Part shown: positions 4,403-47,789 of the stretch, piece after piece
Position numbering within the stretch: position 1 is the stretch's first letter
Layout: every line of letters starts with the position of its first letter
Origin: Escherichia phage mogra
Strand: one strand, 5' to 3'
DNA: 64,000 nt
Sequence record: MN850579.1
Position numbers and translations under genes: made by a program
The notes under the pieces: model-generated
The model's database searches: none
What the model saw: the letters and a program-made list of their open reading frames with translations, nothing else
Told to the model about the DNA's origin: nothing

Positions 4403-4410
4403 TATTTATA
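4403..4410 (-). promoter_or_regulatory. Late promoter (TATAAATA) for gene 22
   Basis: TATAAATA on minus strand about 31 nt upstream of gene 22 ATG, overlapping gene 21 stop. Confidence 0.65.
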
Positions 4411-5047
4411 ATGCTTTTAAGCTCTCTGCGAGAGCTTTAAATGCTTCATCAGCACTGTTTTTGGTGATTTCCACCGAATTTTCTGATTCTGATATTTGTT
4501 TAGGAGTAACCCAAGCATCTGGAGCAGAAGGTCCCCATACGGCATCTACGCCGACGGTTAATTTAAATCCTTCGTTCACGATACGGTACCCTTTATTGGT
4601 GTCGGTTAAAGAACCAAGACCACGAGAGGAAACACCTGGAATCCAACCAGCTCGTATATTAGCAGCTAATTTATCACCGGGACCATGGTCGCCTTCAATA
4701 ATTCTAGCACGTCCATATACATCGTTTCCTTTCCACCACATATCTTCAATAATGATAGCGGCTTGCATAGGGTCAACATTTGCGCGAGGTGGATGGTTTA
4801 ATTCTCCAAGGGCTTGTTTGGTTGCGACTTGTTCTTTAATATAGTCACTTACTGCTTTTTCCAAAACGCGTTTAGGATATAAACGTTTATTTCGGTTAAC
4901 AACCTCTGCCTGAAGAAAAATACCTTCTATATAAAGCCCTGGTTTTAAGCCAGAATCTTTTCCATCATGAGATTCCAACATTGGAACGCCATCAATAATC
5001 TCACCGGGTTGACCCCAAGTTTCAATAAGTAACTCGGGTTTATTCAT
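4406..5047 (-). CDS. 21: gp21 prohead protease
   Basis: 213 aa; matches T4 gp21 ([31 protein letters not shown]...). Confidence 0.93.
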   Translation of the reverse strand: MNKPELLIETWGQPGEIIDGVPMLESHDGKDSGLKPGLYIEGIFLQAEVVNRNKRLYPKRVLEKAVSDYIKEQVATKQALGELNHPPRANVDPMQAAIIIEDMWWKGNDVYGRARIIEGDHGPGDKLAANIRAGWIPGVSSRGLGSLTDTNKGYRIVNEGFKLTVGVDAVWGPSAPDAWVTPKQISESENSVEITKNSADEAFKALAESLKAL

Positions 5048-5472
5048 TAGCTTAATCCTAATGCTTTACGACGTTTAAGAGCTTTTTTACGCTTACGTAA
5101 GCCTTTAACTTGGCCTGAAGGGTTAGCTTTTTTAGCTTTAACGACCTTACGAGCGATTTGTCTACGTTTTGCTTTAGAAAGACCAGTGGTTTGGAACGCG
5201 TTACGTTCACGAGTTTTACGGTCTTTAGTGCGGGTGACTTCACCGCGAGAAGAAACATGTTTAACGATAAACTCATTTAACTGTTCTTCATTAATAATGG
5301 AAGCCATTGCAACAGCTAAATCCGTTTCAGTTTCAAGCATGTTCTCGATAATAGTATTTATATCGTCAATATCGAGAGCAGAAGACAATGCATCGATTCG
5401 GCCCTGTGCTTCAGGAATAAGTGCTTCGACATTTTCGAGTACCAATTCATAAGATTCAGGGATAAGATACAT
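5047..5472 (-). CDS. 68: gp68 prohead core protein
   Basis: 141 aa, basic C-terminus, between gene 67 and gene 21 as in T4. Confidence 0.85.
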
Positions 5473-5708
5473 TATTCATCGTCCTCATCATCTTCGTCTT
5501 CGTCGTCATCGCCTTCATCAGCGTCGTCTTCCGAAGCTTTAGCTTTCTTTTCTTCTTCAGGTTCTTCGCCTTCAATCAAAAATTGAGAAGCGATTTCTGC
5601 TTTGCGTGCTTCAATCAAACGAACCGTTTTTTCTGCCATTGCACTTTCAAAAAACTTTCGAGTAGCAACGAGGTCGTTTGATTTAATAGCTTGAATTAAA
5701 TCGTCCAT
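5472..5708 (-). CDS. 67: gp67 prohead core protein
   Basis: 78 aa with poly-acidic C-terminus ([11 protein letters not shown]), T4 position. Confidence 0.85.
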
Positions 5709-15492: not shown

Positions 15493-15503
15493 ATAAATCC
15501 TTT

Positions 15504-15519
15504 AGGGCCCGAAGGCCCT
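15504..15519 (-). other. Stable hairpin between wac and gene 13 (no T-run on coding strand)
   Basis: AGGGCC-CGAA-GGCCCT GC-rich hairpin; T-run only on plus strand. Confidence 0.4.
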
Positions 15520-15524
15520 TTTCA

Positions 15525-34664: not shown

Positions 34665-34730
34665 GTTTACATAAGGATGTTGGTGTGATACTATCATCCT
34701 ATCAAATCACAAACCAAACGGAAAAAACAA
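34665..34730 (+). promoter_or_regulatory. Early promoter cassette (PeSL-like)
   Basis: GTTTAC -35, 17-bp spacer, GATACTAT -10 between GGATG/CATCC arms. Confidence 0.65.
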
Positions 34731-35042
34731 ATGAAAACTTATCAAGAGTTTATCGCTGAAGCTACTAAAGCCGATAAAAATTTTATTATTAACACCACCG
34801 GTCCGTTAGATGATGAATACGCTAATGCTATTATTAAGTCAATTTCTAATCAAGGCGTTGAAGTAACAAATTTCGAATATAAGAAAAATGATACTTATAT
34901 GATAATTAGTATCAAAAAAGGTTCAAAAGCCAAAATTAAATCTGCGTTTGGTGTTATGCGAGTTGACCAAATCGATAACCACGATTTTTCACAAACAGGG
35001 GTCAAACGCCAAAATACCATTTCTTCTAAAGGCATAAAATAA
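34731..35042 (+). CDS. ipI: Internal protein (IPI-like) with capsid-targeting sequence
   Basis: N-terminus MKTYQEFIAEA is the T4 capsid-targeting sequence with gp21 L/I-x-E site; next to 57B as in T4. Confidence 0.75.
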   Translation: MKTYQEFIAEATKADKNFIINTTGPLDDEYANAIIKSISNQGVEVTNFEYKKNDTYMIISIKKGSKAKIKSAFGVMRVDQIDNHDFSQTGVKRQNTISSKGIK

Positions 35043-35103
35043 TTTACAACAAGATAGGACTATGTTATAGTAGTCCTATCAAAACAACCAAACGGAACCT
35101 AAA
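35043..35103 (+). promoter_or_regulatory. Early promoter cassette (PeSL)
   Basis: TTTACA -35, 17-bp spacer, TGT-TATAGT -10 in loop of TAGGACTA/TAGTCCTA 8-bp hairpin. Confidence 0.7.
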
Positions 35104-35367
35104 ATGAAAACTTTCAACGAATTCATCTCAGAATCATCTGGTGTGAAAATTAACAAAGCGGTCAATCAGGTTATTGCTGATATTCTTAATTTGTATAACA
35201 TTGACTTAACTCCGCATATCACGCTTGGTAACAAACGAAACTTTTTCATATTTGACACATCTGAACTTGATGAAAATCGGTTCAATAACATTCAACGTTT
35301 TGCGAATGATAAAGGTCTTCGACACGAGCCTGGTGGCTATAAAAAATACGCAATATATTTGAAATAA
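35104..35367 (+). CDS. Capsid-targeted small protein (CTS-bearing), function unknown
   Basis: N-terminus MKTFNEFISES resembles CTS with I-x-E site. Confidence 0.65.
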   Translation: MKTFNEFISESSGVKINKAVNQVIADILNLYNIDLTPHITLGNKRNFFIFDTSELDENRFNNIQRFANDKGLRHEPGGYKKYAIYLK

Positions 35368-35370
35368 AGG

Positions 35371-35437
35371 TATACAAGCCTATAGGGATATGTTATAGTA
35401 GTCCTATCAAAACAAAATGAGTAAATGGAGAAATAAA
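35371..35437 (+). promoter_or_regulatory. Early promoter cassette (degenerate PeSL)
   Basis: TATACA -35-like, 17-bp spacer, TATAGT -10, conserved leader AAAATGAGTAAATGGAGAAATAAAATG. Confidence 0.5.
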
Positions 35438-35623
35438 ATGAAACGCGCTGAACTGATTCGTAATGTTGCTGTAGTAATTGCTTCAATGGCTTTTAGTTTT
35501 TCGATGTTTGTAGGATTCATTTGTGGACTACTGACAACAACAGAAAATTCTATCTCATTGGTAGTAGCATTTCTAATCGGCTTAATCGCTATCGTTATGG
35601 ATAAAATTGCAAAAGGTGAGTAA
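35438..35623 (+). CDS. Small membrane protein (two predicted TM helices)
   Basis: Second ATG chosen (GGAG SD 10 nt upstream); hydrophobic stretches. Confidence 0.6.
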   Translation: MKRAELIRNVAVVIASMAFSFSMFVGFICGLLTTTENSISLVVAFLIGLIAIVMDKIAKGE

Positions 35624-35624
35624 A

Positions 35625-35987
35625 ATGAAATATCATGTATATGCTGATTTTGAAGCAAATCCTTCTAAAGACCCTGATTGTCGTTTGATACGCAGACCAT
35701 TTGATTCAGCAGCCCAAGCATGGGCTTGGATTAAAACTTGTACTCCTTCTTACACTTTCTTTGAAGTGGTAGATGATAACGGTGTTCTGCATCCAGAACC
35801 TACAGAAACTATTAATTTCCTTCTGTTTGCTGGTTATGACTGTTATCCTCTTGGTGGTATTGACGACCTTGTTGCTATAGGAAAAACTGTTGAAGCTCTT
35901 CGCGAAATTTATAAAAACGCGGAAGAAAATTTTGACTGGTATCATATCGTTGATGCTCATACCTTTGAAATGGTGGAACATTCATGA
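35625..35987 (+). CDS. Hypothetical protein
   Basis: ATG after GGTGAG SD; 120 aa ORF. Confidence 0.6.
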   Translation: MKYHVYADFEANPSKDPDCRLIRRPFDSAAQAWAWIKTCTPSYTFFEVVDDNGVLHPEPTETINFLLFAGYDCYPLGGIDDLVAIGKTVEALREIYKNAEENFDWYHIVDAHTFEMVEHS

Positions 35988-36274
35988 TTCTTTATGCTAA
36001 AGTATCGTCCATTGAGAACGGATATGAAAGCGACCAACGAGCAGCTAAAGCGTTAGTTGATGACTATGGTATTCTGACTATCTTTGAGGTTGAAAAGGTT
36101 TATATCGACCGTTCATCTTCACAAGTTAAATTACTCTGTGAAGACGTTAAATTTAACACAGTTAACTTTGATTTCTTTATTGAAACAGAAAAAGGCCCTC
36201 TTGAATATGATATTTTCAAGAACCCTTTGAAATTACGTTGCATTGAATATAACTACATTAATATGGTACGGTAA
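35984..36274 (+). CDS. Hypothetical protein
   Basis: 96 aa ORF, ATGA overlap with upstream gene. Confidence 0.6.
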   Translation: MILYAKVSSIENGYESDQRAAKALVDDYGILTIFEVEKVYIDRSSSQVKLLCEDVKFNTVNFDFFIETEKGPLEYDIFKNPLKLRCIEYNYINMVR

Positions 36275-36370
36275 AACGTAATTTGCTTTAAGAATTATGT
36301 GTTATTATTAATCTACCCTCTATTACCAAAGGTGCTCCCTCAAGTGCCTTTCATAATAGAAAGTTATTTA

Positions 36371-36445
36371 GGCCCTGTAGCTCAATGGGAGAGCTGTCAG
36401 CTCATAACTGATAGGTAGCTGGATCGAAACCAGCCAGGGCCACCA
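36371..36445 (+). tRNA. tRNA with CAU anticodon (Ile2 with lysidine, or Met)
   Basis: Hand-folded cloverleaf: acceptor GGCCCTG/CAGGGCC, D arm GCTC-AATGGGA-GAGC, anticodon loop CTCATAA, T arm GCTGG/CCAGC, encoded CCA. Confidence 0.8.
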
Positions 36446-36545
36446 ATTCGCGGTGAGTACGCTCTTAGGTAGGTAAGTTGTTCGAATAAGGGTTAAAAGT
36501 AGAACCTACAAACGAGTAACCCTGAAACACCCAAAGCCGCATCAT

Positions 36546-36622
<77 letters not shown>

Positions 36623-36640
36623 ACTTCAAGTGAGGAAAAT

Positions 36641-36985
36641 ATGAAAGGCAATATTTATTTGGTAGTTCATGATTTAACGTTTTATTTTAACGAACAGGAT
36701 ACAGTTATTTCCGACCGGTTGATTAATTCGTTATATCAACACGCTGATTACGTTTATTTTAAAAATGAATTAGGACATTGGAAGTTTCTTAAAAACCGTT
36801 CCGGGTTAACTAGTTTTGAATACTTTGACCGTAAAGACCTTTTAAACGAAATTCCATTACAACATCGGTTCCAGAAACGCGAATCACTATACTATTGTCG
36901 CCATATACCAAATGCTGAATGTGTTTATGAAGCGATTAATCTATGGCGTCGACGTCGAGAGCAAATTGATGATATGCCAAAATAA
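36641..36985 (+). CDS. Hypothetical protein
   Basis: ATG after GAGGAAAA SD just 3' of tRNA-Arg; ORF-track start 36593 would overlap the tRNA. Confidence 0.6.
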   Translation: MKGNIYLVVHDLTFYFNEQDTVISDRLINSLYQHADYVYFKNELGHWKFLKNRSGLTSFEYFDRKDLLNEIPLQHRFQKRESLYYCRHIPNAECVYEAINLWRRRREQIDDMPK

Positions 36986-36989
36986 GAAG

Positions 36990-37260
36990 CCGGGTCGCTA
37001 CCGGCAAGTCGTCGGACTGATGTTCCCTGAGTAAGGACTGGTCTTAATAAATCTTTATGTTTTGTTAATATCCCCTTACATCACAGCAGAAACGGCGCAC
37101 CGAATTATCGATTCGAGGAAATATCTTTGCCGTAAGCCGAGTAGCGTTTTTGACGGAACGTTCGGATATGGTCGAGATATGGCCTTTTAAAAATATTGAG
37201 TAGCGTCAACTACTTAATAACCGGGTTCGAGTCCCGGCGTTTCGTACAAACACTTGCCTT
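36990..37260 (+). ncRNA. Candidate structured small stable RNA(s) downstream of the tRNAs
   Basis: About 300 nt with no ORF, several hairpins (GCCGG-TCGCTA-CCGGC; T-arm-like CCGGGTTCGAGTCCCGG), ending in a terminator; T4 has stable RNAs C/D next to its tRNAs. Confidence 0.35.
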
Positions 37261-37267
37261 AGCAGGT

Positions 37268-37297
37268 GGAACCCCGACAAGGTTGGGGCTTTTTTTG
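37268..37297 (+). terminator. Rho-independent terminator
   Basis: AACCCC...GGTTGGGGC hairpin followed by T7. Confidence 0.75.
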
Positions 37298-37340
37298 CAT
37301 AATAATAAATAGATAAGTTAATTAACTTAGGAAAAGCAAC

Positions 37341-37805
37341 ATGAAATCATACGCTGAATTTTTGACTGAACAATCTAGTTCAGATGTAAAAGCCGCTGCG
37401 ATTGCAGCAATTCAAGCAGGTAAATATTCTTACAAAGACGCCTCTGATGAAGAACGTTTCCGTTTTATTAGAGATTTTAAAGCCGAAGGTTTTACTAATG
37501 CTAATACTGTTAGCCGAGTTTTTAAAAGCCTAGCTGCATCAGGTGAATTGTTCCAGAAAGCTACAGGTAAAGCACCTGCACCAAAAGCGGACCCTAAAGC
37601 CGCTCAAGAAAAAAATATCGCCAAAGGAATTATTTCTAAGTATGAAGCAATTCTTAAAGAGCTTTTAGTAATCAAAACAGAAGGCCAGAAACTGGCACGA
37701 GCACATAGCTTCAAAGATAATCCTCACGCTCATAGCCTTGAGTATGTTGAAGATATCCAAAAACTTATTAAAGACCGTATCTGGTCTGCTAAACAAATTA
37801 AATAA
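37341..37805 (+). CDS. Capsid-targeted protein (CTS-bearing), function unknown
   Basis: 154 aa; N-terminus MKSYAEFLTEQ resembles CTS with L-x-E site. Confidence 0.65.
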   Translation: MKSYAEFLTEQSSSDVKAAAIAAIQAGKYSYKDASDEERFRFIRDFKAEGFTNANTVSRVFKSLAASGELFQKATGKAPAPKADPKAAQEKNIAKGIISKYEAILKELLVIKTEGQKLARAHSFKDNPHAHSLEYVEDIQKLIKDRIWSAKQIK

Positions 37806-37811
37806 TAGAAT

Positions 37812-37838
37812 GCCCCTTCCTTACGGTTGGGGCTTTTT
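37812..37838 (+). terminator. Rho-independent terminator
   Basis: GCCCC...GGGGC hairpin + T5. Confidence 0.7.
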
Positions 37839-37871
37839 GGTATCTAGGGCATAAAAATATTTCATAAAGAT

Positions 37872-37928
37872 GTTTACTTCTTCCCTAGATGTGTTACTAT
37901 AGACCTATCAAAACATGGGGAGAATATT
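37872..37928 (+). promoter_or_regulatory. Early promoter cassette (PeSL-like)
   Basis: GTTTAC -35, GTTACTATAG -10 region, SD GGGGAG. Confidence 0.65.
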
Positions 37929-38432
37929 ATGAGTCTTTACACTGAACTGAATAAAAAATCTGAAGAATCTGCTGAAACTATTTTTAAAAACGTGCAAAAG
38001 CGTATTTTAGAAAAGATGTATAACGCTGCAGCTAAAGGTGAAAAATCTTGCCGGTTTCCGATTAGGTGTTCTTCAGATTTATGCGCAAATACTATTGAAT
38101 GGCTGGAAAGTGAAGGTCTTACGGTAGAGAAAAACCCGGCGACTTCTATTGATAGCGAATCATATATTAGTATTTCTTGGGATAAATCAAGGGTAGAAGA
38201 GAAAGATGGTGATTGGGTTGTAGATGTTAAAACTTCTGATGGTGGACGTTCTGTTGAAGTTTCAGCTGTAGTTAAAGGTACCCACGAACAAAGGACTTGG
38301 GGTTGGGGTGGTGAAGAAAAAGAAATTGTTCTTAGTGTGATTGCCAGGTCAACTAGTAATAAAATTGCACAAAGCATCATTGACGCTGCAATTGCTGAAG
38401 CAGAAAAAATTTGCAAAATTAAAAATAAATGA
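37929..38432 (+). CDS. Hypothetical protein
   Basis: 167 aa ORF after promoter cassette. Confidence 0.65.
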   Translation: MSLYTELNKKSEESAETIFKNVQKRILEKMYNAAAKGEKSCRFPIRCSSDLCANTIEWLESEGLTVEKNPATSIDSESYISISWDKSRVEEKDGDWVVDVKTSDGGRSVEVSAVVKGTHEQRTWGWGGEEKEIVLSVIARSTSNKIAQSIIDAAIAEAEKICKIKNK

Positions 38433-38491
38433 TGTACAAGCACCAAGGATGGTGATACTATAGACTTATCAACTACAGAGGAGTAAACAAA
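38433..38491 (+). promoter_or_regulatory. Early promoter cassette; 46-nt identical to copy at 1613-1658
   Basis: TGTACA -35-like, CACCAAGGATGGTG palindrome, GATACTATAG -10, GAGGAG SD. Confidence 0.65.
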
Positions 38492-38656
38492 ATGACTACT
38501 TTAATTATTTGGTTCGATGAAAATGAAGAAACATACTGTGTGAATATTGGTGAAAGTCCAATGCCTGAATTTGAATCCTCAGATAAAAACTCTGTTGTAT
38601 CTTGGGCTGAAGGTTATAAAGCAGCTAAAGGTGACGTTGAAATAATTTACATCTAA
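38492..38656 (+). CDS. Small hypothetical protein (54 aa)
   Basis: ATG 9 nt after GAGGAG; MTTLIIWFDENEETYCVNIGESP... Confidence 0.5.
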   Translation: MTTLIIWFDENEETYCVNIGESPMPEFESSDKNSVVSWAEGYKAAKGDVEIIYI

Positions 38657-38702
38657 GTAAGTTTATGTTATAGTAGTCCTATCAAATCAAGAGGAAAACA
38701 AA
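38646..38702 (+). promoter_or_regulatory. Early promoter cassette (PeSL)
   Basis: TTTACA -35 inside end of preceding ORF, 17-bp spacer, TATAGT -10, TAGTCCTATCAAA box. Confidence 0.55.
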
Positions 38703-38930
38703 ATGGCTAAAGTTAGTATTGATGTCGTTGATTATGAATACACTGAAGAAGTTATTCGCAACCGTCACCCTGAAGTTCGTATCGATTCAGTCCAAGATTC
38801 CAAGTTCTGGACAACTGAGCTTAATCTGAGTGGTCCTTATGAAGCCGTTAAGAAGTTCATGGTTGAAGAATACTGTGAAGGCATGCACCCGGAAGACGCC
38901 AAGTTTTATGTCAATTTGATTAAAAAATAA
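38703..38930 (+). CDS. Hypothetical protein
   Basis: 75 aa ORF, SD AGAGGAAAA. Confidence 0.6.
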   Translation: MAKVSIDVVDYEYTEEVIRNRHPEVRIDSVQDSKFWTTELNLSGPYEAVKKFMVEEYCEGMHPEDAKFYVNLIKK

Positions 38931-39000
38931 TTTACAAACTCTTGAGAGCAGAGTATAATGCTCTCATTGGATAATAAACCACCAATTGAAAGGTAATAAT
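38931..39000 (+). promoter_or_regulatory. Early promoter in stem-loop
   Basis: TTTACA -35, 17-bp spacer, TATAAT -10 in loop of TGAGAGC/GCTCTCA hairpin. Confidence 0.7.
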
Positions 39001-39594
39001 ATGAACACACTGAAGAAACTTGTTGAATTCATCCGCACTAAACTGGGTACTGCTATGGCTAAAAATCTGACTGTCGAAGAACAGTATAACGCAGCTGCAG
39101 ATAAGTTGATTACCCAAATCAAAGAACTAAAAACGGCTTCTGTTAAATCTATTAATGAAGAAAAACGTATTCGCGAACTTGTTAATGAAAAGAACAAGCA
39201 AGCCGCTTCTAAGGAACTTGAAATTCGTAAGCTCCTGGCTGAAGGACAAGATGTTACTATGCATGCTAAGCTTGGTCTTCTGTATCGTCGAACTGCCGAA
39301 CAACTTAATACAAAAGCTGACGGGTATGCCGCTATGCGAATTGAAATTGCTCGTAAGGTGGTTGAACTTGACGATGCTCGTCAGAACCTGGCAATCAAAC
39401 TCGAATACATTCGTGAAACTCGAGCAGCCAATGCCCTTGGTATCTCTACGGCCGATGATGTAATTGAAATCGCTGCACTGACTAAGGTTGATATCGAAGA
39501 CACTCTGACTCGTGTTGAAACGTTCAATGGCACTCCAGCCGGCGTCGAAACCACTTCTGCTGATGTACAAGAATATATTAACTCTTTGAAATAA
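39001..39594 (+). CDS. Coiled-coil protein with PspA/IM30-like character
   Basis: 197 aa, heptad-rich; loose resemblance to PspA family by eye. Confidence 0.5.
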
Positions 39595-39602
39595 AATAAT
39601 AC

Positions 39603-39624
39603 GGAGGACTCCGGTCCTCCTTTT
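39603..39624 (+). terminator. Rho-independent terminator
   Basis: GGAGGAC-TCCG-GTCCTCC + TTTT. Confidence 0.8.
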
Positions 39625-39643
39625 GGATAATAAAGGAGTTAAC

Positions 39644-40246
39644 ATGCGAAACCAAAATAATGATATTGACTCAATGTTCGAAGAGTTCCGAGATAAGGTA
39701 AATCCACCTACGTCTTTAGTTGATTCATTACGATATGTTGCAACTGGACGTAAATGGTACTGGTCGTCTTCTTATGAGACCACCGAGAAAACGGCTAGCC
39801 ATAGCAGAAAATCTTTATTAGCCCCAGGTATTATGATTCATGATATCGGAGCTATTGCTAAACTAGTTGCAGACCATGATATTAGATTCACTGATTTCGT
39901 TGCTCCTACGTGGTCTGTTTGTTGTTTAAACACTGAATGGGAATATATCAGCGAACGCTCTGAAGATTATTATGGCTTTAGAGATAAGCTTCTGAGGTCT
40001 AATATGTTTTATATCGATACAGAAGTTCTAGTCGATAATAAAAAATATTACTTTACGTTAATCATCGATTCTGAAACTATGTATGAAGGCAAGCCTTTGC
40101 TTAAGAGAGTTGATGCTTTAAGTGCTATTGATGCGCTTTATGAAACTATGGTTGTTAGTCCTAATTTCACTAATAATTTAATCCTTGAGCAATTTATTAT
40201 GGAATGTAGAGAATATGTCAAAGCCAACCCTATACATGCCAAGTAA
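39644..40246 (+). CDS. Hypothetical protein
   Basis: ATG after AAGGAG SD; about 200 aa; C-terminal ...QFIMECREYV. Confidence 0.65.
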   Translation: MRNQNNDIDSMFEEFRDKVNPPTSLVDSLRYVATGRKWYWSSSYETTEKTASHSRKSLLAPGIMIHDIGAIAKLVADHDIRFTDFVAPTWSVCCLNTEWEYISERSEDYYGFRDKLLRSNMFYIDTEVLVDNKKYYFTLIIDSETMYEGKPLLKRVDALSAIDALYETMVVSPNFTNNLILEQFIMECREYVKANPIHAK

Positions 40247-40610
40247 GCCCTGGGCGTATGAATACAAGCGTAAATTAATCCCAAATGAAGTATTATTTGG
40301 CCCTATTTTAGCTTTAGCATTTTTAATCTTTATGATTATAGGAGCTGTTTTAGATTCTAGTGAAGTTATATCGTCTGATGCAGCATTTTCATTAATGTTC
40401 GTCGCACCACTTATTGTACCGTTTTTATTAATGCCTATTAATTGGGTAGGATATTGGCACCAAGGCCGTCATCACAGAGCCCGATTAAGAGAATGGAAAG
40501 TTCAGTGCGCAAAAGCCCAAGCTCAGTATGATGAAGCTGTTAAAAAGTATGAATATGAAGAAGCTATGGAATTCGTTAAGGAAATAAGATGCAAAAGCCT
40601 CAACTCTTAA
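40215..40610 (+). CDS. Small membrane protein
   Basis: About 131 aa; two hydrophobic helices; start overlaps upstream gene. Confidence 0.55.
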   Translation: MSKPTLYMPSKPWAYEYKRKLIPNEVLFGPILALAFLIFMIIGAVLDSSEVISSDAAFSLMFVAPLIVPFLLMPINWVGYWHQGRHHRARLREWKVQCAKAQAQYDEAVKKYEYEEAMEFVKEIRCKSLNS

Positions 40611-40948
40611 CCGTATGGCCTTCTCTTGGTGAGAACATTCTAATTTTTATTATGAGTATTGGCATGGGATTTGCCTTTGGATTAGTTGGATTTCTTATTG
40701 ACGGCGTTGTGTTAGGATTTATAGGGAACACTGGTGGATTCACAGACCAATGGCAGGACTTACGGTATACCCAAGCCTTTGCATCCATCGCATCATTTTG
40801 TACTGTAGTCTATTTTTACTACGATTTTATAAACCATAACAAGAAAAATAAAAAGATTTACGCTTCTCAAATGATTAGTTATAATGAACTTCTAGCTAAA
40901 CGTGAAAATGAAACAATCGAAAACTTTATTAAGGAATGTAGAAAATGA
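40589..40948 (+). CDS. Small membrane protein, C-terminal NFIKECRK
   Basis: 119 aa; TM helices; C-terminal FIKECR motif shared with 43098 and 44091 genes. Confidence 0.65.
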   Translation: MQKPQLLTVWPSLGENILIFIMSIGMGFAFGLVGFLIDGVVLGFIGNTGGFTDQWQDLRYTQAFASIASFCTVVYFYYDFINHNKKNKKIYASQMISYNELLAKRENETIENFIKECRK

Positions 40949-41250
40949 GTAAGATTATTGAAATTAAAGTACCAGAGTTTAATGATGCCAAATCCGCTTC
41001 AGATGCAATTTATAAACTTCTGAATCAAGCTGAACGTATCGAAGAAGAAGCAACAAAGATCGCAGACCAATATGCCGTGTCATTTTCTGTAGGTGATTAT
41101 GGTAGCGGTCGTACTTATTATCCTAAGGGTGAAATCGTATCCCAGTGGATGAAAGATGAAATTGAAAATAATGGTGGCGATGTTAAGCGTGAAGGTAATG
41201 GTTACGTTATTACTGAAGGTGCTTGGGTTTCGTCTTCTGCGTTGTGCTAA
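40945..41250 (+). CDS. Small protein, paralog family member 1 (C-terminal GAWVSSSALC)
   Basis: 101 aa; ATGA overlap with upstream gene. Confidence 0.65.
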   Translation: MSKIIEIKVPEFNDAKSASDAIYKLLNQAERIEEEATKIADQYAVSFSVGDYGSGRTYYPKGEIVSQWMKDEIENNGGDVKREGNGYVITEGAWVSSSALC

Positions 41251-41259
41251 GGAATCATT

Positions 41260-41532
41260 ATGTCTAAAGAACAAACCGAACTGGCTGAAGCTGTAGCAAA
41301 AATCTATGCAGCTATTGAGGCTGCCAAAGAAATTGCTGATAAACAAAACACAACATTCAACTTGTACCCAGCTTATGGTATGGGTGGAACCTATCATTCA
41401 CCCAGACATCTTAAAGCCGATCTTGAACGTTGTACAAAAAACGGCTATGCTGAATGGGCTGACGTTTACCAATACGACTACAACCTGAGCCTCGAAACCG
41501 GTGGTTGGGTTGCATCTTCTCACACTTGCTAA
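41260..41532 (+). CDS. Small protein, paralog family member 2 (C-terminal GGWVASSHTC)
   Basis: 90 aa; SD TAAGGAA. Confidence 0.65.
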   Translation: MSKEQTELAEAVAKIYAAIEAAKEIADKQNTTFNLYPAYGMGGTYHSPRHLKADLERCTKNGYAEWADVYQYDYNLSLETGGWVASSHTC

Positions 41533-41541
41533 GGAAACAAT

Positions 41542-41739
41542 ATGTCTCGTGAATTAGATTGTGCTGTACGTACGGCAGTAGCTGCTCTGGAAAACCTGTT
41601 CCAAATTGCAACAGAAGAACGCGAAGAAGTTACATTATGGATTGAAGATAACGCAGGTCTGAATCTCCAGGACGCGATCTCATTATCCCACAATAGTATC
41701 ACTGTTCAAGGCTGGGTATCATCTAGTTATTCTTGCTAA
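41542..41739 (+). CDS. Small protein, paralog family member 3 (C-terminal QGWVSSSYSC)
   Basis: 65 aa; SD TAAGGAAA. Confidence 0.6.
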   Translation: MSRELDCAVRTAVAALENLFQIATEEREEVTLWIEDNAGLNLQDAISLSHNSITVQGWVSSSYSC

Positions 41740-41744
41740 AACAG

Positions 41745-41802
41745 TTTACAACAAGATAGGGCTATGTTATAGTAGTCCTATCAAAAACAAATGGAGTCCA
41801 CA
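41745..41802 (+). promoter_or_regulatory. Early promoter cassette (PeSL)
   Basis: TTTACA -35, TATAGT -10 in TAGGGCTA/TAGTCCTA hairpin, leader AAATGGAG. Confidence 0.7.
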
Positions 41803-42042
41803 ATGATTTATTACGAAAGTATCGGAACCAAAGTGGTTGGTAAAACCATTACTCGTGAAAAGTTTGCAAAGATATTCGATATGCGTTATAAAAAATCTGA
41901 ACACAAAGGCATCCGATTCGAAGATGCGCACTGTACAATTTGCCCTTATAATGAAGACATAAACGGTACAATCGTTCCATTGGTAGAGGCTTCACACGAT
42001 GACCTCTGGGACGAATATAATATCGCATGTCGTGAAATTTAA
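41803..42042 (+). CDS. Hypothetical protein
   Basis: 79 aa from second ATG (GGAG SD). Confidence 0.55.
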   Translation: MIYYESIGTKVVGKTITREKFAKIFDMRYKKSEHKGIRFEDAHCTICPYNEDINGTIVPLVEASHDDLWDEYNIACREI

Positions 42043-42070
42043 GTTAATGAATTAATCCGAGGAAAATATT

Positions 42071-43027
42071 ATGATGTTAGTTATTGGTTCTCGTGCACTT
42101 CACTATCACGGTCTTATTGATTCTAGCGCTATCAAAAATAGCGATTGGGACTTTATTGCGGACCAAGGTTCTTGGAATGCATTCAAAAATCAAATGATGG
42201 GTGTATATGTTCACCAAGATAACCCTGATGTCCAAGTTTTCAAATGCTTCCATAATGGACGCGAAACTCATTTTGAAGCATATATTGTTCCGGCAATCAC
42301 TAATGTCCGTGAATTAGTCGGTGAACTCACTCCTGAAGATTTCACGTCTTCTTATGACCTTTTAAAATACGCCAAGAAAAATTTGACTAAAGACCGTTTG
42401 AACGGGTTTTACTGGGCAACTCCTGAGATATGTCTTGCAATTAAGATGTCTCATCGTTTCAAGAAAAATAATCCATTCTTTTTAAAGACTATGAACCATA
42501 TTCAGTATCTTCGTGGTAAAGGTGTTACACTGAACGATGAACTTACTGAAATTATGCTGAAACGCCAGAAAGAAACCTTGAACTATGCTCACCCGGTTCT
42601 TGACACTTCTAAAAGTGCGTTCTTTAAAGATGACATCTATACATATGACCATGATACTATTCATGAAGCCATTGCACTAACAGACCGTCCGGCTTATACA
42701 TTTTATATGAAAGACGGTTCTGAAGTCATGACCTCACGCGAGAAGTTCGAATCGTTACCAGAAATGGTCAAATTGGCCGGTGTATATGAAGAATCATGTG
42801 TACTAGCATTAGAACGTTCTCAGATTCCTAATGACTTTAAAATTAACCCTGAAGCCAGTTTCATGATGGCATTAGAAAAAGTCTGCACAAGCATCACCTC
42901 CGGTTGGTTCCGTGAATACGCCTGGGAAAACTACAGCAAAGTAGTAAGTATGTACCAAAGCTTAGGACATAACGATTACGTCAAACGTTTCAAACAAAAT
43001 TTCCATATGGTAAAACCTTTCAAATAA
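42071..43027 (+). CDS. Nucleotidyltransferase-fold protein (pol-beta superfamily, AbiEii/DUF1814-like motif)
   Basis: 318 aa; N-terminal VIGSRALHYHGL...SDWDF fits hG[GS]...[DE]h[DE] NTase motif. Confidence 0.5.
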   Translation: MMLVIGSRALHYHGLIDSSAIKNSDWDFIADQGSWNAFKNQMMGVYVHQDNPDVQVFKCFHNGRETHFEAYIVPAITNVRELVGELTPEDFTSSYDLLKYAKKNLTKDRLNGFYWATPEICLAIKMSHRFKKNNPFFLKTMNHIQYLRGKGVTLNDELTEIMLKRQKETLNYAHPVLDTSKSAFFKDDIYTYDHDTIHEAIALTDRPAYTFYMKDGSEVMTSREKFESLPEMVKLAGVYEESCVLALERSQIPNDFKINPEASFMMALEKVCTSITSGWFREYAWENYSKVVSMYQSLGHNDYVKRFKQNFHMVKPFK

Positions 43028-43040
43028 TTTCGCAAAACTG

Positions 43041-43097
43041 TTTACACAATTATAGGACTATGTTATAGTAGTCCTACCAAAACATGAGGAGAATATT
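43041..43097 (+). promoter_or_regulatory. Early promoter cassette (PeSL)
   Basis: TTTACA -35, TATAGT -10 in TAGGACTA/TAGTCCTA hairpin. Confidence 0.7.
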
Positions 43098-43403
43098 ATG
43101 AAATTAGGCGAAACCAACCGAATTGGTCTTTTAACAATATTTGCATCACTTTTTTACGCAACTCTTTCTGTTGCAGTATTACAAAAGGCTTACAGTATGG
43201 ATGGTGTGCCTGGTTGTATATTCTTATCACCGTTTTTATTATTCGTCGGAGCTTTGTTATTATATGCCACGACTAGTTTCGACCATAATGTCTGGGTCAA
43301 TTATAAACGTAAATTGACCGAAGAAGAACACGCAGAAGCTCGTAAAAAAGCTATTGAATCTACCAATCTAGAAAATTTCATTAAAGAATGTCGAGGAAAA
43401 TAA
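43098..43403 (+). CDS. Small membrane protein, C-terminal NFIKECRGK
   Basis: 101 aa; two TM helices; FIKECR C-terminal motif. Confidence 0.65.
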   Translation: MKLGETNRIGLLTIFASLFYATLSVAVLQKAYSMDGVPGCIFLSPFLLFVGALLLYATTSFDHNVWVNYKRKLTEEEHAEARKKAIESTNLENFIKECRGK

Positions 43404-43404
43404 T

Positions 43405-44091
43405 ATGAATAGTTCTAAAGTGTTTAATAGTCAAGCTCGTGCAATAGGTGGTTTTGCTCATGCGATTAAAAACGACCAGATTAAAAACGAGCCTATGTTC
43501 TTTAACTGCGATTTGAATTTTGCTTTTGATAATGGCGGCCCAATTACTCGTAGCTTTATCCAAAATCTCCCTGACGATTGGAAAGACTCGGATGTAGTAT
43601 TTGATTCACGAGTCCACATGCTGATGCCTGGTTGGTACCCTGCTATTCCTGGATATCACCATGACGATGTTCCACGCCCTGATATTCCAGTTGGTCAACA
43701 TTTTATTACTGCAGGACAACCTGATTATGACAATCCTCGCTATTTGTCTGAACATATTCTTGGTCTTGTTAACGCTGATGTGTGTCCTACTCATTTTGCA
43801 ACAGGAACTGCAGAGTTCAGTCAGATTCCTGATGGCGAACTTATCTATCGCCAGTGGCACAAAGAAGTCCTCGAAAAAATCGAAAAAGGCGAACTAGAGA
43901 AATGGGAAGCTCCAGACCGTACTCTTCTTCAGTTTGATTGGCAAACATGGCACACTGGTTCTCGTGCAATTAGTAATGGATGGCGTTGGTTCGGACGTGT
44001 ATCTCGTAATACAGACCGAGTTAAAAAGATTACCAATGAAATTCGTGTCAATGCCCAAGTTTATCTGGAATTCCCTATGGAAGGTTGGTAA
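43405..44091 (+). CDS. Hypothetical protein (contains PGYHHDD motif)
   Basis: 228 aa ORF, translationally coupled. Confidence 0.65.
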   Translation: MNSSKVFNSQARAIGGFAHAIKNDQIKNEPMFFNCDLNFAFDNGGPITRSFIQNLPDDWKDSDVVFDSRVHMLMPGWYPAIPGYHHDDVPRPDIPVGQHFITAGQPDYDNPRYLSEHILGLVNADVCPTHFATGTAEFSQIPDGELIYRQWHKEVLEKIEKGELEKWEAPDRTLLQFDWQTWHTGSRAISNGWRWFGRVSRNTDRVKKITNEIRVNAQVYLEFPMEGW

Positions 44092-44582
44092 TGATTAACA
44101 AAACATATTGGTCTAATATAGACGATGGCAACGAAGGTATTTCGTATTATTCGGTAGATTGGACAGGATGTCCATCCTACTTAGTGAAACATATTTGCCA
44201 AGAATTTAAAATCTACCAGCCAGCAGGTATTATTGTGAACAGATACATTAATGGATATCAACCTATCGATGAAGTAATACGAACAACTCAAGCTGAGCTT
44301 GAAAAGTTTTTCAATAAGTGCCAATGGATAACAGGATGGATTATATTTGTACCGTCTATATGGTTTTTTAGTACTAAAGTAAGTGCCTTTGCTGTACTAG
44401 ATATTATCGCTATCTTATTAGCATCTACTATCGTAAGTATTATTGGTGGTATTATTGGTGGAGGTATTGTAGGCATCATTATTAATCTTATTAAAAGTAG
44501 TTTACAAGAACATAAAGACAAGATAAAAGCCAAGAATAATGAAGTTGAACGTTTTATTACCGAATGCAGGAATTTGAGATGA
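44091..44582 (+). CDS. Membrane protein with Gly-rich TM segment, C-terminal RFITECRNLR
   Basis: 163 aa; TAATG overlap with upstream stop; IIGGIIGGGIVGIII hydrophobic segment. Confidence 0.65.
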   Translation: MINKTYWSNIDDGNEGISYYSVDWTGCPSYLVKHICQEFKIYQPAGIIVNRYINGYQPIDEVIRTTQAELEKFFNKCQWITGWIIFVPSIWFFSTKVSAFAVLDIIAILLASTIVSIIGGIIGGGIVGIIINLIKSSLQEHKDKIKAKNNEVERFITECRNLR

Positions 44583-44815
44583 GTATAGCAATTTACATTA
44601 AATCAGAATCATGTGATAGTTATCTGTACACATACGATAAAGATGTGTCAGAAGAAAAAATCAAAGACGATCTTAATATGGACCTTGATATGTTCTGTCC
44701 TATTGCAGATTACAAACTTGCGGTCTCTAATAGTGAAAGTCCATCTAAAGAAACGCGCATCGAAGAATTTATGTCCGAATTAATGGCCAAATCATGGGAC
44801 CGAGATGATGAGTAA
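44579..44815 (+). CDS. Hypothetical acidic protein
   Basis: 78 aa; ATGA overlap with upstream gene. Confidence 0.55.
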   Translation: MSIAIYIKSESCDSYLYTYDKDVSEEKIKDDLNMDLDMFCPIADYKLAVSNSESPSKETRIEEFMSELMAKSWDRDDE

Positions 44816-45263
44816 GAAAAATAAAGTGAAAGAACTATCAGCCGGTATTATTTTCCTTACCGAAGATAAAGAATTATTCATGGGGCGTGTAACTGGTTCT
44901 TGTCCTAAAGGTTCTTTAGCTCATAGGTGGGATATTCCTAAAGGCCGTGTCGAACCTGGCGAATCTTCTATTGAAGCCGCTATTCGTGAATGCGAAGAAG
45001 AAACTGGGTTTACACAATATGACCCTGCCTTCCTGAAAGACCTAGGTGAACATCGTTACTCAGACAATAAGAATATTCATCTGTTCCTATATGCCATCCC
45101 TGTAGAGCACGAGCAATTCAGAAACAGTGTTTGTAATTCCTATCATACATTCCCAGACGGACGACAGATTCCTGAATTTGATGCATTCGCTTTAATTAAA
45201 CCTTCTCAATGGGAATATGTGATGGGCAAATCATTATATAAGGTGCTCACTACCCTCCTATAA
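44805..45263 (+). CDS. nudE: Nudix hydrolase (NudE / e.1-like)
   Basis: 152 aa; Nudix box GRVEPGESSIEAAIRECEEETG; immediately upstream of endolysin as in T4. Confidence 0.88.
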   Translation: MMSKKNKVKELSAGIIFLTEDKELFMGRVTGSCPKGSLAHRWDIPKGRVEPGESSIEAAIRECEEETGFTQYDPAFLKDLGEHRYSDNKNIHLFLYAIPVEHEQFRNSVCNSYHTFPDGRQIPEFDAFALIKPSQWEYVMGKSLYKVLTTLL

Positions 45264-45297
45264 GTAATAAATACCTCCTATAAACGTGGGAGGTATT
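45251..45297 (+). promoter_or_regulatory. Endolysin leader: RBS-sequestering hairpin with late-promoter-like loop
   Basis: ATACCTCC-TATAAACGTG-GGAGGTAT hairpin containing the SD; TATAAACG and upstream TATAAGTA resemble TATAAATA. Confidence 0.5.
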
Positions 45298-45786
45298 ATG
45301 AATATATTTGAAATGCTTCGTAATGACGAAGGTCTTAGACTGACTTTATACAAAGACACTGAAGGCTTTTGGACGATTGGCATAGGCCATTTAGTAACAA
45401 AGAACCCGTCTTTAGCCGTAGCTAAAGCTGAACTTGACAGAATGATCGGTCGTAAATGCAACGGTACAATTACCCTTGATGAGGCTGAAAAGCTATTTAA
45501 TGAAGACGTTGATAAAGCCGTTCGCGGAATCTTGGGTAATGCTAAACTTAAACCGGTGTATGATTCTTTAGACGCGGTTCGTCGATGTGCATTGGTCAAT
45601 ATGGTCTTCCAAATGGGTGTAGCAGGCGTCGCTGGTTTTACTAATTCTCTTCGTATGCTTCAACAGAAACGTTGGGACGAAGCGGCAGTAAATCTAGCCC
45701 AATCTAAATGGTATCGTCAGACACCTAATCGCGCGAAACGCGTAATCTCAACATTTAAAACAGGAACTTGGAAAGCGTATATATGA
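45298..45786 (+). CDS. e: Endolysin (T4 lysozyme)
   Basis: 162 aa; [32 protein letters not shown]... near-identical to T4 lysozyme. Confidence 0.97.
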
Positions 45787-46064
45787 AAACATACAATGAA
45801 TTTTTATCAGAATCTATTCTTAACGAAGCTACTGACACATTTGCAACTAAGCTAGGTGCAGCTTTGGTTGAAGCCGAAAGTCTATTAGCACGTATTTCTG
45901 AACTTGCTAGTAAGATAGATACTCGCAAATTTGAACGTACCAGCGATATCGTTAAGCTCGAAGCCTTGTTGCGTATGTGCGATAAACCGGAAGAAATCGC
46001 TAAGAACGGCTCGCTGATGAAACAACGTCTTGAAAAATATATTTCAGGCGCTTCAGAAAAATAG
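45783..46064 (+). CDS. Capsid-targeted protein (CTS-bearing), function unknown
   Basis: 93 aa; N-terminus [11 protein letters not shown]; ATGA overlap with e stop. Confidence 0.6.
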
Positions 46065-46065
46065 T

Positions 46066-46122
46066 GTTTACTTCCTCCAAGGACTTTGATACTATACATC
46101 TATCAACTACTTGGAGGAAATT
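46066..46122 (+). promoter_or_regulatory. Early promoter cassette (PeSL-like)
   Basis: GTTTAC -35, GATACTATAC -10 between TTCCTCCAAG/CTTGGAGGAA arms. Confidence 0.65.
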
Positions 46123-46536
46123 ATGACTCGTATCAATTTGACACTTGTTTCTGAACTGACCGACCAACATCTTATGGCTGAGTATCGTGAATTACCACGC
46201 GTATTTGGTGCAGTCCGTAAACATGTTCAAAACGGTAAACGTGTAAAGGATTTTAAAATCTCTCCAACATTTATCTTAGGCACAGGTCACGTAACATTCT
46301 TTTACGACAAACTCGAATTTTTACGTTTACGACAAATCGAGCTAATCGCTGAATGCTTGAAACGTGGTTTCAAAATCAAGGACACGACAGTCCAGGATAT
46401 TTCCGACATCCCTGCCGAATTTCGTAATAATTATGTCCCGTCTGAAGCGTCCATTGCGATAAGTCAAGCACGCTTAGATGAAAAAATTGCTCAACGTCCG
46501 ACTTGGTACAAATACTATGGTAAATCAATTTACTAA
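46123..46536 (+). CDS. denV: Endonuclease V (pyrimidine dimer DNA glycosylase)
   Basis: 137 aa; [34 protein letters not shown]... near-identical to T4 DenV. Confidence 0.96.
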
Positions 46537-46542
46537 GGAAAA

Positions 46543-46803
46543 ATGAAAATGTATCAAGAATTTATCGCTGAAGCAGATGCCAAAGGTCCTAAATTTAAAG
46601 TTAAAGCTTTCATTGGTGATGCCGAAGACTTTGGCTCATTAAAACGTAATGGGTATTCTTTCTTAGGTGGCGATGGTAAAGAAATCAACACCTATGCAAA
46701 ACGTAGTGAAATTGCTTATGTTGTAGCAAGTCCTAAAGTAGATGTTGACGATATTGGATACGATTTTAACAACTTCGGAATTATTTCTGGCGGTAAAGCT
46801 TAA
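46543..46803 (+). CDS. Capsid-targeted protein (CTS-bearing), function unknown
   Basis: 86 aa; N-terminus MKMYQEFIAEA. Confidence 0.65.
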   Translation: MKMYQEFIAEADAKGPKFKVKAFIGDAEDFGSLKRNGYSFLGGDGKEINTYAKRSEIAYVVASPKVDVDDIGYDFNNFGIISGGKA

Positions 46804-46805
46804 AC

Positions 46806-46866
46806 GGTTTACGCTTAAGTATTAATATGGTATAATTACTCTATCAAAACAAACAAGGAAACAAAA
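46806..46866 (+). promoter_or_regulatory. Early promoter
   Basis: GTTTAC -35, TGGTATAAT extended -10, CTATCAAAAC box. Confidence 0.65.
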
Positions 46867-47445
46867 ATGAAAACGTATAAAGAATTTATCGCCGAGGCCT
46901 TTGCAGGAAAAGCTCAAGGCATTAATAAGGACGAGTGGAATTATCGTGGCGGAAACGGCTTTGACCCTAAAACTGCTCCACTTGAACGATATCTGGCCAC
47001 AAAAGCTTCTGATTTTAAAGCCTTCGCTTGGGAAGGACTACGCTGGCGTAACGATCTAAATATTGAAGTTGACGGACTTAAATTTGCTCATATTGAAGAT
47101 GTTGTTGCTAGTAACTTAGACGCAGCTTTTGTTAAAGCCGACAGTGACCTTCGTCGCTGGAATTTAAAACTGTTCTCTAAACAAAAAGGCCCGAAGTTTG
47201 TGCCTAAAGCAGGTAAATGGGTCATTGATAATAAATTAGCTAAAGCTGTCAACTACGCCGGTCTTGAATTTGCCAAGCATAAATCATCATGGAAAGGTCT
47301 TGATGCAATGGCTTTCCGTAAAGAATTTGCCGATGTTATGGCTAAAGGCGGCTTTAAGGCAGAAATAGATACAACTAAGGGCACGTTTAAAGACGCTAAT
47401 GTTCAGTACGCTTACGCCGTTGCTAATGCAGCCCGTAATTCCTAA
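46867..47445 (+). CDS. Internal protein (IPIII-like size) with capsid-targeting sequence
   Basis: 192 aa; N-terminus MKTYKEFIAEA; size close to T4 IPIII. Confidence 0.7.
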   Translation: MKTYKEFIAEAFAGKAQGINKDEWNYRGGNGFDPKTAPLERYLATKASDFKAFAWEGLRWRNDLNIEVDGLKFAHIEDVVASNLDAAFVKADSDLRRWNLKLFSKQKGPKFVPKAGKWVIDNKLAKAVNYAGLEFAKHKSSWKGLDAMAFRKEFADVMAKGGFKAEIDTTKGTFKDANVQYAYAVANAARNS

Positions 47446-47486
47446 TAAAGCTAATACTCAGACCTATTTACATTTAAAGGAAACAT

Positions 47487-47789
47487 ATGAAAACATATCA
47501 AGAATTTATTACTGAAGCGCGAGTGAGTGCAGGTAAATTAGAAGCCGCTATAAATAAAAAGGCCCATTCATTTCATGATTTGTCCGATAAAGACCGTAAG
47601 AAACTTGTAAGCCTTTATATTGACAAAGAGCGTATTCTCGCTCTTCCTGGCGCTAATGAAGGTAAACAGGCCAAGCCTTTGAATGCTGTCGAAAAGAAAA
47701 TTGATAACTTTGCTTCTAAATTCGGTATGTCTATGGATGACCTTCAGCAAGCGGCTATCGAAGCAGCTAAAGTAATTAAAGGTAAATAA
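47487..47789 (+). CDS. Internal protein (IPII-like size) with capsid-targeting sequence
   Basis: 100 aa; N-terminus MKTYQEFITEA. Confidence 0.7.
   Translation: MKTYQEFITEARVSAGKLEAAINKKAHSFHDLSDKDRKKLVSLYIDKERILALPGANEGKQAKPLNAVEKKIDNFASKFGMSMDDLQQAAIEAAKVIKGK

Follow-up and report, generated by a model that had tools for sequence, protein, structure and literature searches.

Phages can disarm host restriction before their DNA is cut: P1 packages and injects the anti-restriction proteins DarA and DarB, and T7 carries Ocr as an early anti-restriction gene. The same logic would apply to the seven genes analyzed here, which lie between positions 34,731 and 47,789 of a 64,000-nucleotide (nt) stretch of Escherichia phage mogra (MN850579.1; the whole stretch is called the window in the following) and each of which begins with a motif matching the capsid-targeting sequence (CTS) of the internal proteins (Ips, or IPs) of phage T4. 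No sequence or fold relationship to DarA, DarB or Ocr was found, and the CTS tag with its protease is T4-specific.

The closest described system is that of T4 itself. According to PMC9026906, the N-terminal 10 residues of IPIII are enough to bring foreign proteins into T4 heads and are removed by the protease gp21, residues 4 and 7 were mapped by experiment as determinants of targeting and residues 8 and 10 as determinants of processing, and the IPs are dispensable on laboratory hosts. About 1000 IP molecules, basic and located among the packaged DNA, are packaged and injected (PMC9026906; Rao & Black 2010). Each of the T4 proteins Ip1, Ip2 and Ip3 inhibits a GmrSD type IV restriction enzyme of its own, without cross-protection; Ip3 acts on GmrSD of ECOR17 and Ip2 on GmrSD/BrxU of ECOR21 (PMC12373910). 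IPIII lacking the CTS was published to remain functional when expressed in the host. That T-even phages carry variable sets of CTS-bearing Ips has been on record since Repoila et al. 1994 (as cited in later work), and the role of these proteins as injected anti-defence factors was put forward in 1994 (Repoila, as cited), 2010 (Rao & Black) and 2025 (Silas); an explicit prediction that the Ip loci code for inhibitors of different GmrSD variants was made in 2025 (Silas 2025).

Seven genes with a capsid-targeting sequence

A six-frame scan of the 64-kb window identified exactly seven open reading frames (ORFs) with the strict pattern MK(T/S/M)(Y/F)xEF(I/L)xE, all on the plus strand. Together with the ORF listing of 33.5–49 kb it places their starts at 34731, 35104, 37341, 45783, 46543, 46867 and 47487, and the ORFs are named here by these positions; the stop of the last one, at 47789, is the end of the region. 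Three relaxed patterns, one of which required only MK.[YFW].[EDQN][FYL] at the start of an ORF, returned the same seven and added none, and the strict motif had no match in 100 shuffles of the window. In every case the motif begins at the first ATG of the ORF, 2–16 codons past the preceding stop, with a ribosome-binding site of the GGAA/AGGA type 6–10 nt upstream.

Residues M1, K2, E6, F7 and E10 are invariant in the seven tags; Y or F occurs at position 4, I or L at position 8 and A, S or Q at position 11, and all tags satisfy the mapped determinants (Y/F4, F7, I/L8, E10). Synonymous codons vary at E6, F7 and E10, and also at Y4, I8 and T3, and the 30-nt tags are identical in pairs at only 19–27 of 30 positions; therefore it is the peptide, and not a recent DNA copy, that is conserved. 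The sequence-only reading, made from the letters of the window before this analysis, had listed ORFs at these seven starts with a shared N-terminal motif and had recognized the motif as the T4 CTS. The first statement is borne out by the scans, and the second is supported by the matching determinants and by the presence of gp21 and gp22 genes in the window. Its remark that the proteins differ in size and sequence holds as well: they range from 86 to 192 amino acids (aa), and their mature parts are mutually dissimilar, with a weak match between 34731 and 35104 (expectation value E = 0.004) as the sole exception. Calculated without the tag, the mature forms have masses of 8.1–20.3 kDa; a basic isoelectric point (pI) of 9.3–9.7, as in the T4 IPs, is shared by five of them.

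The window also encodes gp21 and the scaffolding core protein gp22 (Table 1), adjoined by gp67, gp68, gp23, gp24 and gp20 on the minus strand. Its gp21 has H and S at two positions where PDB entry 5JBL (T4 gp21) has A; we take these to be the catalytic residues, mutated in that entry. The gp23 of the window retains the maturation site FLTE↓AEIGGD (L-T-E↓A). From gp21, gp22 and this site it follows that the machinery to read and remove the CTS is present.

It could be argued that the tag of some of the seven is a relic of duplication or recombination which no longer directs packaging. Decay of this kind is seen in RB69, where ORF127c begins with MKTYMNFYQNLSLNE, ORF123c has A in place of E10 and a further CTS gene is split by a frameshift into ORF149c and ORF148c. 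We consider such an explanation very improbable for the window, as all seven tags are intact at the mapped positions, their synonymous variation indicates purifying selection on the peptide, and the orthologues in PTE-Eco05, Shf125875 and Bas46 retain their tags.

Identity and arrangement of the proteins

The 14.5-kb region is 95–97% identical to the Mosigvirus phages PTE-Eco05, AV118, phiE142 and Shf125875, and on this sequence identity the window is assigned to a Mosigvirus, i.e., an RB69-like T-even phage. Its gene order is gp1, 57A, 57B, two CTS genes, trna.4–.2, two transfer RNA (tRNA) genes, one CTS gene, the e.x genes, nudE, e, a CTS gene, denV, three CTS genes and vs.8, which matches the T4 order ipI ... 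e-ipIII-ipII-denV and adds extra cassettes. Six of the seven CTS genes occupy the two classical Ip loci (57B–trna.4 and e–denV–vs.8), and 37341 lies at a third site. With 37341 again excepted, the proteins fall into families named internal head or virion protein in PHROG and RefSeq.

Two of them reproduce known T4 proteins. ORF 46867 is 90% identical to T4 ipIII at both the aa and the nt level (phrog_5341, E = 6e-117), and 47487 is 93% (aa) and 96% (nt) identical to ipII (phrog_7857, E = 5e-55); no homologue of Ip1 (IPI) was found in the window. Three others have orthologues in RB69: 34731 shares 97% aa identity with RB69 p156 and 66% with Ip7 of Shf125875 (phrog_2667 'internal head protein', E = 2e-38; mature form 10.3 kDa, pI 9.5), 45783 shares 92% with p127 (phrog_3499 'internal head protein', E = 1e-46), and 46543 shares 95% with p125 (phrog_2667, E = 7e-21, and also phrog_35655). 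RefSeq labels RB69p156 as 'internal head protein' and gives the same label for 45783 and 46543. ORF 35104 belongs to phrog_7673 'internal head protein' (E = 4e-48) and is about 70% identical to RB15 Ip9 (Q38376) and VR25 ip9. The window contains homologues of polymorphic Ips of T-even phages (the Ip4–Ip12 of Repoila et al. 1994, for example RB15 Ip7 and Ip9) and of RB69 ORF125c, ORF127c and ORF156c at the same hypervariable sites.

The T4 system and that of the window have in common the 10-residue CTS, the neighborhoods 57B-ipI-trna.4 and e-ipIII-ipII-denV, and an encoded protease and scaffold. Besides the IPI homologue missing from the window, they differ in three respects: T4 has the ip3-ip2 pair between e and denV, whereas the window has it on the vs.8 side of denV; the five further cargo domains of the window are unrelated to those of T4; and T4 DNA contains glucosylated hydroxymethylcytosine (glucosyl-hmC), whereas Mosigvirus DNA contains arabinosyl-hydroxycytosine. 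The ip3-ip2 block is 89–96% identical to T4 at the nt level, compared with 75–80% for the neighboring e, denV, nudE and 57B. Because the identity of the block exceeds that of its flanks and the pair stands on the opposite side of denV, lateral exchange of an ip3-ip2 cassette fits these data.

Table 1. Positions and properties of the features discussed in the text, in the window and in other phages.
Sequence	Feature	Coordinates	Strand	Length or motif	Remarks
Window	CTS protein 1	34731..35042	+	103 aa	Ip7 family, RB69 gp156 orthologue; first gene of locus A (57B ... trna.4)
Window	CTS protein 2	35104..35367	+	87 aa	Ip9 family; second gene of locus A
Window	CTS protein 3	37341..37805	+	154 aa	Full-length phrog_2280 member (E = 1e-53); between tRNA genes and e.x genes
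Window	CTS protein 4	45783..46064	+	93 aa	RB69 ORF127c orthologue
Window	CTS protein 5	46543..46803	+	86 aa	RB69 ORF125c orthologue, distant Ip7-family paralogue; starts 7 nt after denV
Window	CTS protein 6	46867..47445	+	192 aa	Ip3 (IPIII) orthologue
Window	CTS protein 7	47487..47789	+	100 aa	Ip2 (IPII) orthologue
Window	gp21 prohead protease	4406..5047	-		Pfam Peptidase_S77 (E = 3e-107); PDB 5JBL (E = 3e-125)
Window	gp22 scaffolding core protein	3560..4372	-		Pfam T4_CASP (E = 1.5e-89)
Window	Sigma-70-like (T4 early-type) promoter of 34731	34666..34694	+	TTTACA-17-TACTAT	
Window	Sigma-70-like promoter of 35104	35043..35071	+	TTTACA-17-TATAGT	Extended -10 element
Window	Inverted repeat before 35104	35053-35080		GATAGGACTA...TAGTCCTATC	10 bp, perfect; spans the -10 of the promoter
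Window	Sigma-70-like promoter of ip3 (46867)	46808..46836	+	TTTACG-17-TATAAT	With TG
Window	Terminator hairpin, then late-promoter near-match	37272..37311	+	AATAAATA	One mismatch to the T4 late promoter; 30 nt upstream of 37341
Window	Exact late-promoter sequence	47549-47556	+	TATAAATA	Inside the ip2 coding sequence, 60 nt past its start
Window	e.4	40215-40610	+		Predicted membrane protein
Window	e.3	40589-40948	+		Predicted membrane protein
Window	RB69 ORF133c-like	43098-43403	+		Predicted membrane protein
Window	e.2	44091-44582	+		Predicted membrane protein
Window	RB69 ORF139c-like	40945-41250	+		Small tandem paralogue
Window	RB69 ORF137c-like	41260-41532	+		Small tandem paralogue
Window	RB69 ORF136c-like	41542-41739	+		Small tandem paralogue
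RB69	CTS genes that look degraded	6923-7204, 5450-5779, 15429-15991 of the examined stretch	-		
RB69	Third-locus gene ORF149c/148c				Frameshifted phrog_2280 gene
Bas46	Third-locus genes Bas46_0241, Bas46_0240				phrog_2280
Tequatrovirus AR1	Third-locus gene AR1_137			MKSYAQFLNE (MKSYAQFLNEAVLNE)	phrog_2280
Tegunavirus fHe-Yen9-01	Third-locus gene gp153			MLEYSEFLKE	phrog_2280
Tegunavirus fHe-Yen9-01	Third-locus gene gp154			MLQYNEFLKE	phrog_2280
Guernseyvirinae phage M01	CTS-less Ip9 homologue			72 aa	Within a run of small accessory genes
Seuratvirus KS_A3	CTS-less Ip9 homologue			74 aa	Within a run of small accessory genes
Others	Further CTS-less Ip9 homologues			67-77 aa	
Kuttervirus pertopsoe	pertopsoe_86	467-2734 of the examined stretch	+	755 aa	phrog_3867; Ip9-like domain in the C-terminal 75 residues
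OLB35 (MH992122.1)	'ip7 protein'	75912-76199			

Proposed packaging, injection and targets

In our reading, to which we assign a probability of roughly 0.8, the seven ORFs make up the Ip complement of a Mosigvirus, targeted to the scaffold, trimmed by gp21 and injected together with the DNA; packaging, cleavage, injection and targets are what we infer from the T4 precedent. Each protein would be made with its 10-residue N-terminal CTS, which would dock it onto the gp22 scaffolding core during prohead assembly. gp21 would cut after L/I-x-E at residue 10, and possibly also at residue 15 in 45783, whose L/I-x-E sites end at residues 10, 15, 30 and 40. The mature proteins of 8–20 kDa would then remain in the head, be ejected with the DNA and counter the first-response defences of the host ahead of any phage gene expression.

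The most likely targets of Ip3 (46867) and Ip2 (47487) are GmrSD-family type IV restriction enzymes, because their close T4 orthologues have known GmrSD targets. Mosigvirus DNA, in which mono- and di-arabinosylated forms of 5-hydroxycytosine occur, is still cleaved by BrxU, an enzyme of the GmrSD family (PMC13390438). By analogy, the most likely targets of the other five proteins would be further variants of modification-dependent nucleases, directed against the arabinosylated cytosine in the DNA of this genus. The sequence-only reading had proposed the additional proteins as injected anti-defence effectors of unknown specificity. The anti-defence part has its precedent in the action of Ip1–3 against GmrSD, but two of the seven are Ip3 and Ip2, whose specificity is probably not unknown.

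Several observations weigh against this reading. The mature domains of five of the seven proteins lack similarity to Ip1, Ip2 or Ip3, and fold searches gave no informative match; the targets assigned to these five are therefore pure analogy. With a pI of about 6.3, the mature forms of 45783 and 46543 fall outside the basic range. In the late-promoter scan, an exact copy of the T4 late promoter TATAAATA was found directly upstream of none of the seven CTS ORFs, and three of these ORFs have sigma-70 promoters of the early type. The family of 37341, phrog_2280, is conserved across Tequatrovirus, Mosigvirus and Tegunavirus, which is unusual for a gene in an arms race. Our literature search found no usable virion mass spectrometry for Mosigvirus or RB69. 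Finally, head assembly in T4 IPIII mutants ran at about half the normal rate, with a burst of about 40%, and the IPs and gp22 co-purify (PMC9026906); therefore not every Ip need be purely anti-defence.

This last point is also the best starting place for the view that some of the seven act mainly inside the virion, in assembly of the scaffold core, DNA condensation or charge neutralization. Such a role would agree with the assembly and burst defect and the co-purification, with the approximately 1000 basic IP molecules among the packaged DNA and the basic character of five of the seven window proteins, and with the comparative conservation of phrog_2280. We nevertheless regard it as unlikely: the T4 IPs can be dispensed with on laboratory hosts, an essential structural role does not predict presence/absence polymorphism between near-identical phages, and two of the seven proteins are neutral or acidic.

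Taken as injected anti-defence proteins, the Ips act before phage gene expression and so help to determine which wild strains a therapeutic T-even phage infects. Because Ip1, Ip2 and Ip3 have each been tied to a specific GmrSD variant, uncharacterized CTS proteins are the obvious next candidates, and the window supplies five of them from a genus whose DNA carries arabinosyl-hydroxycytosine and not glucosyl-hmC. The curated list comprises the explained Ip2 and Ip3, the named but uncharacterized Ip7-like (two), Ip9-like and ORF127c proteins, and the unannotated phrog_2280 protein. The finding is correct but essentially known, and the accepted picture is unchanged; the additions made here are modest and consist of the unannotated third locus with phrog_2280, the tag-less homologues of Ip9 and the evidence for transfer of the ip3-ip2 cassette.

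A third CTS locus between the tRNA and e.x genes

The literature on Ip loci speaks of 'the two Ip loci', and the tRNA–e.x site of 37341 falls outside both. The same site also holds CTS genes in RB69, Bas46, AR1 and fHe-Yen9-01 (Table 1), and these too belong to phrog_2280 over their full length. Every phrog_2280 member examined begins with the CTS or with the variant ML(E/Q)Y(S/N)EFLKE, and all of them lie between the tRNA cluster and e.8/e.6. With 37341 as query, tblastn matched 511 phage records; most of them are from Tequatrovirus, with an identity of about 74%, and the conservation is wider than that of the classical Ips. In every record among the matches listed the homologue is labelled 'hypothetical protein', and the same label is used in the large protein collection. 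From these sequences, phrog_2280 is a conserved third CTS locus and the sole component of the set without recognition as a CTS protein in public annotation.

The AlphaFold2 (AF2) model of 37341 is all-helical and two-lobed, with a mean predicted local distance difference test (pLDDT) value of 76; its N-terminal bundle is joined through a Pro/Ala/Lys-rich linker to a helical hairpin at the C-terminus. A fold search with this model gave no structural match. Sequence searches were equally uninformative, as Pfam yielded only sub-threshold noise for all seven proteins and a PDB sequence search with 37341, Ip3 and Ip2 matched no structure or complex.

Homologues of the Ip9 cargo without a tag

Structure prediction of the mature domains, which had been proposed as a check along with the original observation, gave a confident domain for 35104 and no informative fold match. 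The mature protein was modelled by AF2 as alpha-beta-beta-alpha-beta-beta with a pLDDT of about 90, the CTS being disordered ahead of the compact domain, and fold searches with this model returned generic matches only. Homologues of the Ip9 domain without a tag were found by tblastn, by a full HMMER scan covering 1.8 billion representatives and with the PHROG profile, whereas a word-indexed protein search had overlooked them. They include small ORFs of a Guernseyvirinae phage and a Seuratvirus as well as the C-terminus of a large Kuttervirus protein (Table 1). As such homologues exist in unrelated phages and the disordered tag precedes a confidently predicted domain, the Ip9 cargo appears from sequence and model to be a mobile unit to which T-even phages have added a CTS. 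The tag-less homologues further hint at a function of at least one cargo domain away from the packaging system of T4.

The large Kuttervirus protein adjoins structural genes and begins with MAIPSFLNFLEE, loosely resembling a CTS (F-x-x-F-L-x-E); it is a candidate for a large packaged protein of Ackermannviridae. Another composite is the 'ip7 protein' of OLB35, whose N-terminal half is of the Ip7 type and whose C-terminal half is of the Ip9 type. The two adjacent cassettes seem to have recombined in frame here, which fits the weak similarity of Ip7 and Ip9 noted above for 34731 and 35104.

These homologues bear on the targets. Some or all of the five uncharacterized CTS proteins could be injected effectors directed at something other than GmrSD, be it other defences or host takeover, for which the packaged ADP-ribosyltransferase Alt would be a parallel. 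Their mature domains are unrelated to Ip1–3 and to one another, and the Ip9-type domain occurs without a CTS in Guernseyvirinae and Seuratvirus as small early-region genes and in Kuttervirus as a C-terminus. Phages of these three groups are not known to share the DNA chemistry of the T-even phages, and the presence of homologues in them argues that the target of the Ip9 domain is not specific to glycosylated cytosine DNA. The conservation of phrog_2280 across three genera points the same way. The odds nonetheless seem to us to lie on the side of GmrSD: all three T4 Ips with known targets act on GmrSD enzymes, the authors of Silas 2025 propose GmrSD for the Ip loci as a whole, and no fold or family match points to another activity.

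A wider and more tentative extension is that the CTS is a portable delivery tag which has been attached repeatedly to generic small counter-defence domains. phrog_2280 would then be a widespread, so far unrecognized internal protein family of Tevenvirinae with perhaps a non-GmrSD target, and the CTS-less Ip9 domains would act on the same host target unpackaged. If true, a list of CTS-tagged ORFs would be a ready source for finding anti-defence domains that can serve phages of unrelated kinds.

Gene counts and probable exchange of cassettes

Counts of CTS genes were obtained by a pattern scan of the syntenic regions of five Mosigvirus genomes and of T4. The window has seven, as do PTE-Eco05 (the same set), Bas46 and RB69 (a count that takes in two ORFs with degenerate tags and one that is frameshifted), and Shf125875 has six. 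We therefore rejected the idea that seven is an unusual number. The 'expanded set' of the sequence-only reading is not peculiar to this window, since seven genes are the normal Mosigvirus complement. In T4 the scan matched only ipII and ipIII, because the leader of Ip1 has diverged.

At least 11 cargo families occupy the same three sites across the five Mosigvirus genomes, and the combination in the window equals that of PTE-Eco05 and differs from those of RB69, Bas46 and Shf125875. A tag scan of IMG/VR yielded at least 120 stretches with at least 159 distinct CTS ORFs, which form at least about 70 cargo sequence clusters; all seven window proteins have cluster mates among them, and the counts per T4-like genome in IMG/VR, which are lower bounds, run from at least one to at least six. 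On the compared sequences, three hotspots prone to recombination accommodate the CTS genes: 57B–trna.4, tRNA–e.x and e–denV–vs.8. The tag and the promoter and leader sequences that the genes have in common could plausibly promote the swapping of cassettes.

As regards the three CTS genes of RB69 that look degraded, the start of ORF127c looks like a local double frameshift, and the split ORF149c + ORF148c corresponds to one intact 187-aa ORF in Bas46. This apparent degradation could be due to sequencing errors or to real decay.

Promoters and leaders

Sigma-70-like promoters precede 34731, 35104 and 46867 (Table 1), and each is followed by a conserved 5′ leader, CTATCAAA.CAA.C.AA.GGAA, common to the three genes. 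The perfect inverted repeat before 35104 could be an operator or a 5′ hairpin of the RNA; a shorter GGATG/CATCC repeat is found at the equivalent place upstream of 34731. A T4 omics paper makes no mention of the ip genes.

The start of 45783 overlaps the stop of the lysozyme gene e (ATGA, 45783-45786, where the e ORF ends), which suggests translational coupling to this late lysis gene. Near-matches to the T4 late promoter precede both the e-45783 pair and, after a terminator hairpin, 37341; in AR1 the homologous site has the same hairpin and then the perfect sequence before AR1_137. Sites with one mismatch are not enriched in the window (164 found, 169 expected from shuffles), so the near-match upstream of 37341 is weak evidence, and our claim for late transcription goes no further than the AR1 homologue and the ATGA shared by e and 45783. 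Exact sites mark the structural genes on the minus strand, and the only one on the plus strand of the region lies within ip2.

Other probable paralogous families in the region

Two further groups of similar genes were observed between the CTS loci. The predicted membrane proteins e.4, e.3, ORF133c-like and e.2 diverge strongly except at the C-terminus, where in all four a Lys/Glu-rich helix is followed by the tail E-x-F-(I/V)-(K/T)-E-(C/I)-R; judged by this tail they look like a paralogous family with a conserved cytoplasmic end. In addition, three small ORFs in tandem, similar to RB69 ORF139c, ORF137c and ORF136c, are paralogues with an N-terminal MS(K/R) and a C-terminus of identical type, G-W-V-(S/A)-S-S-x-x-C.

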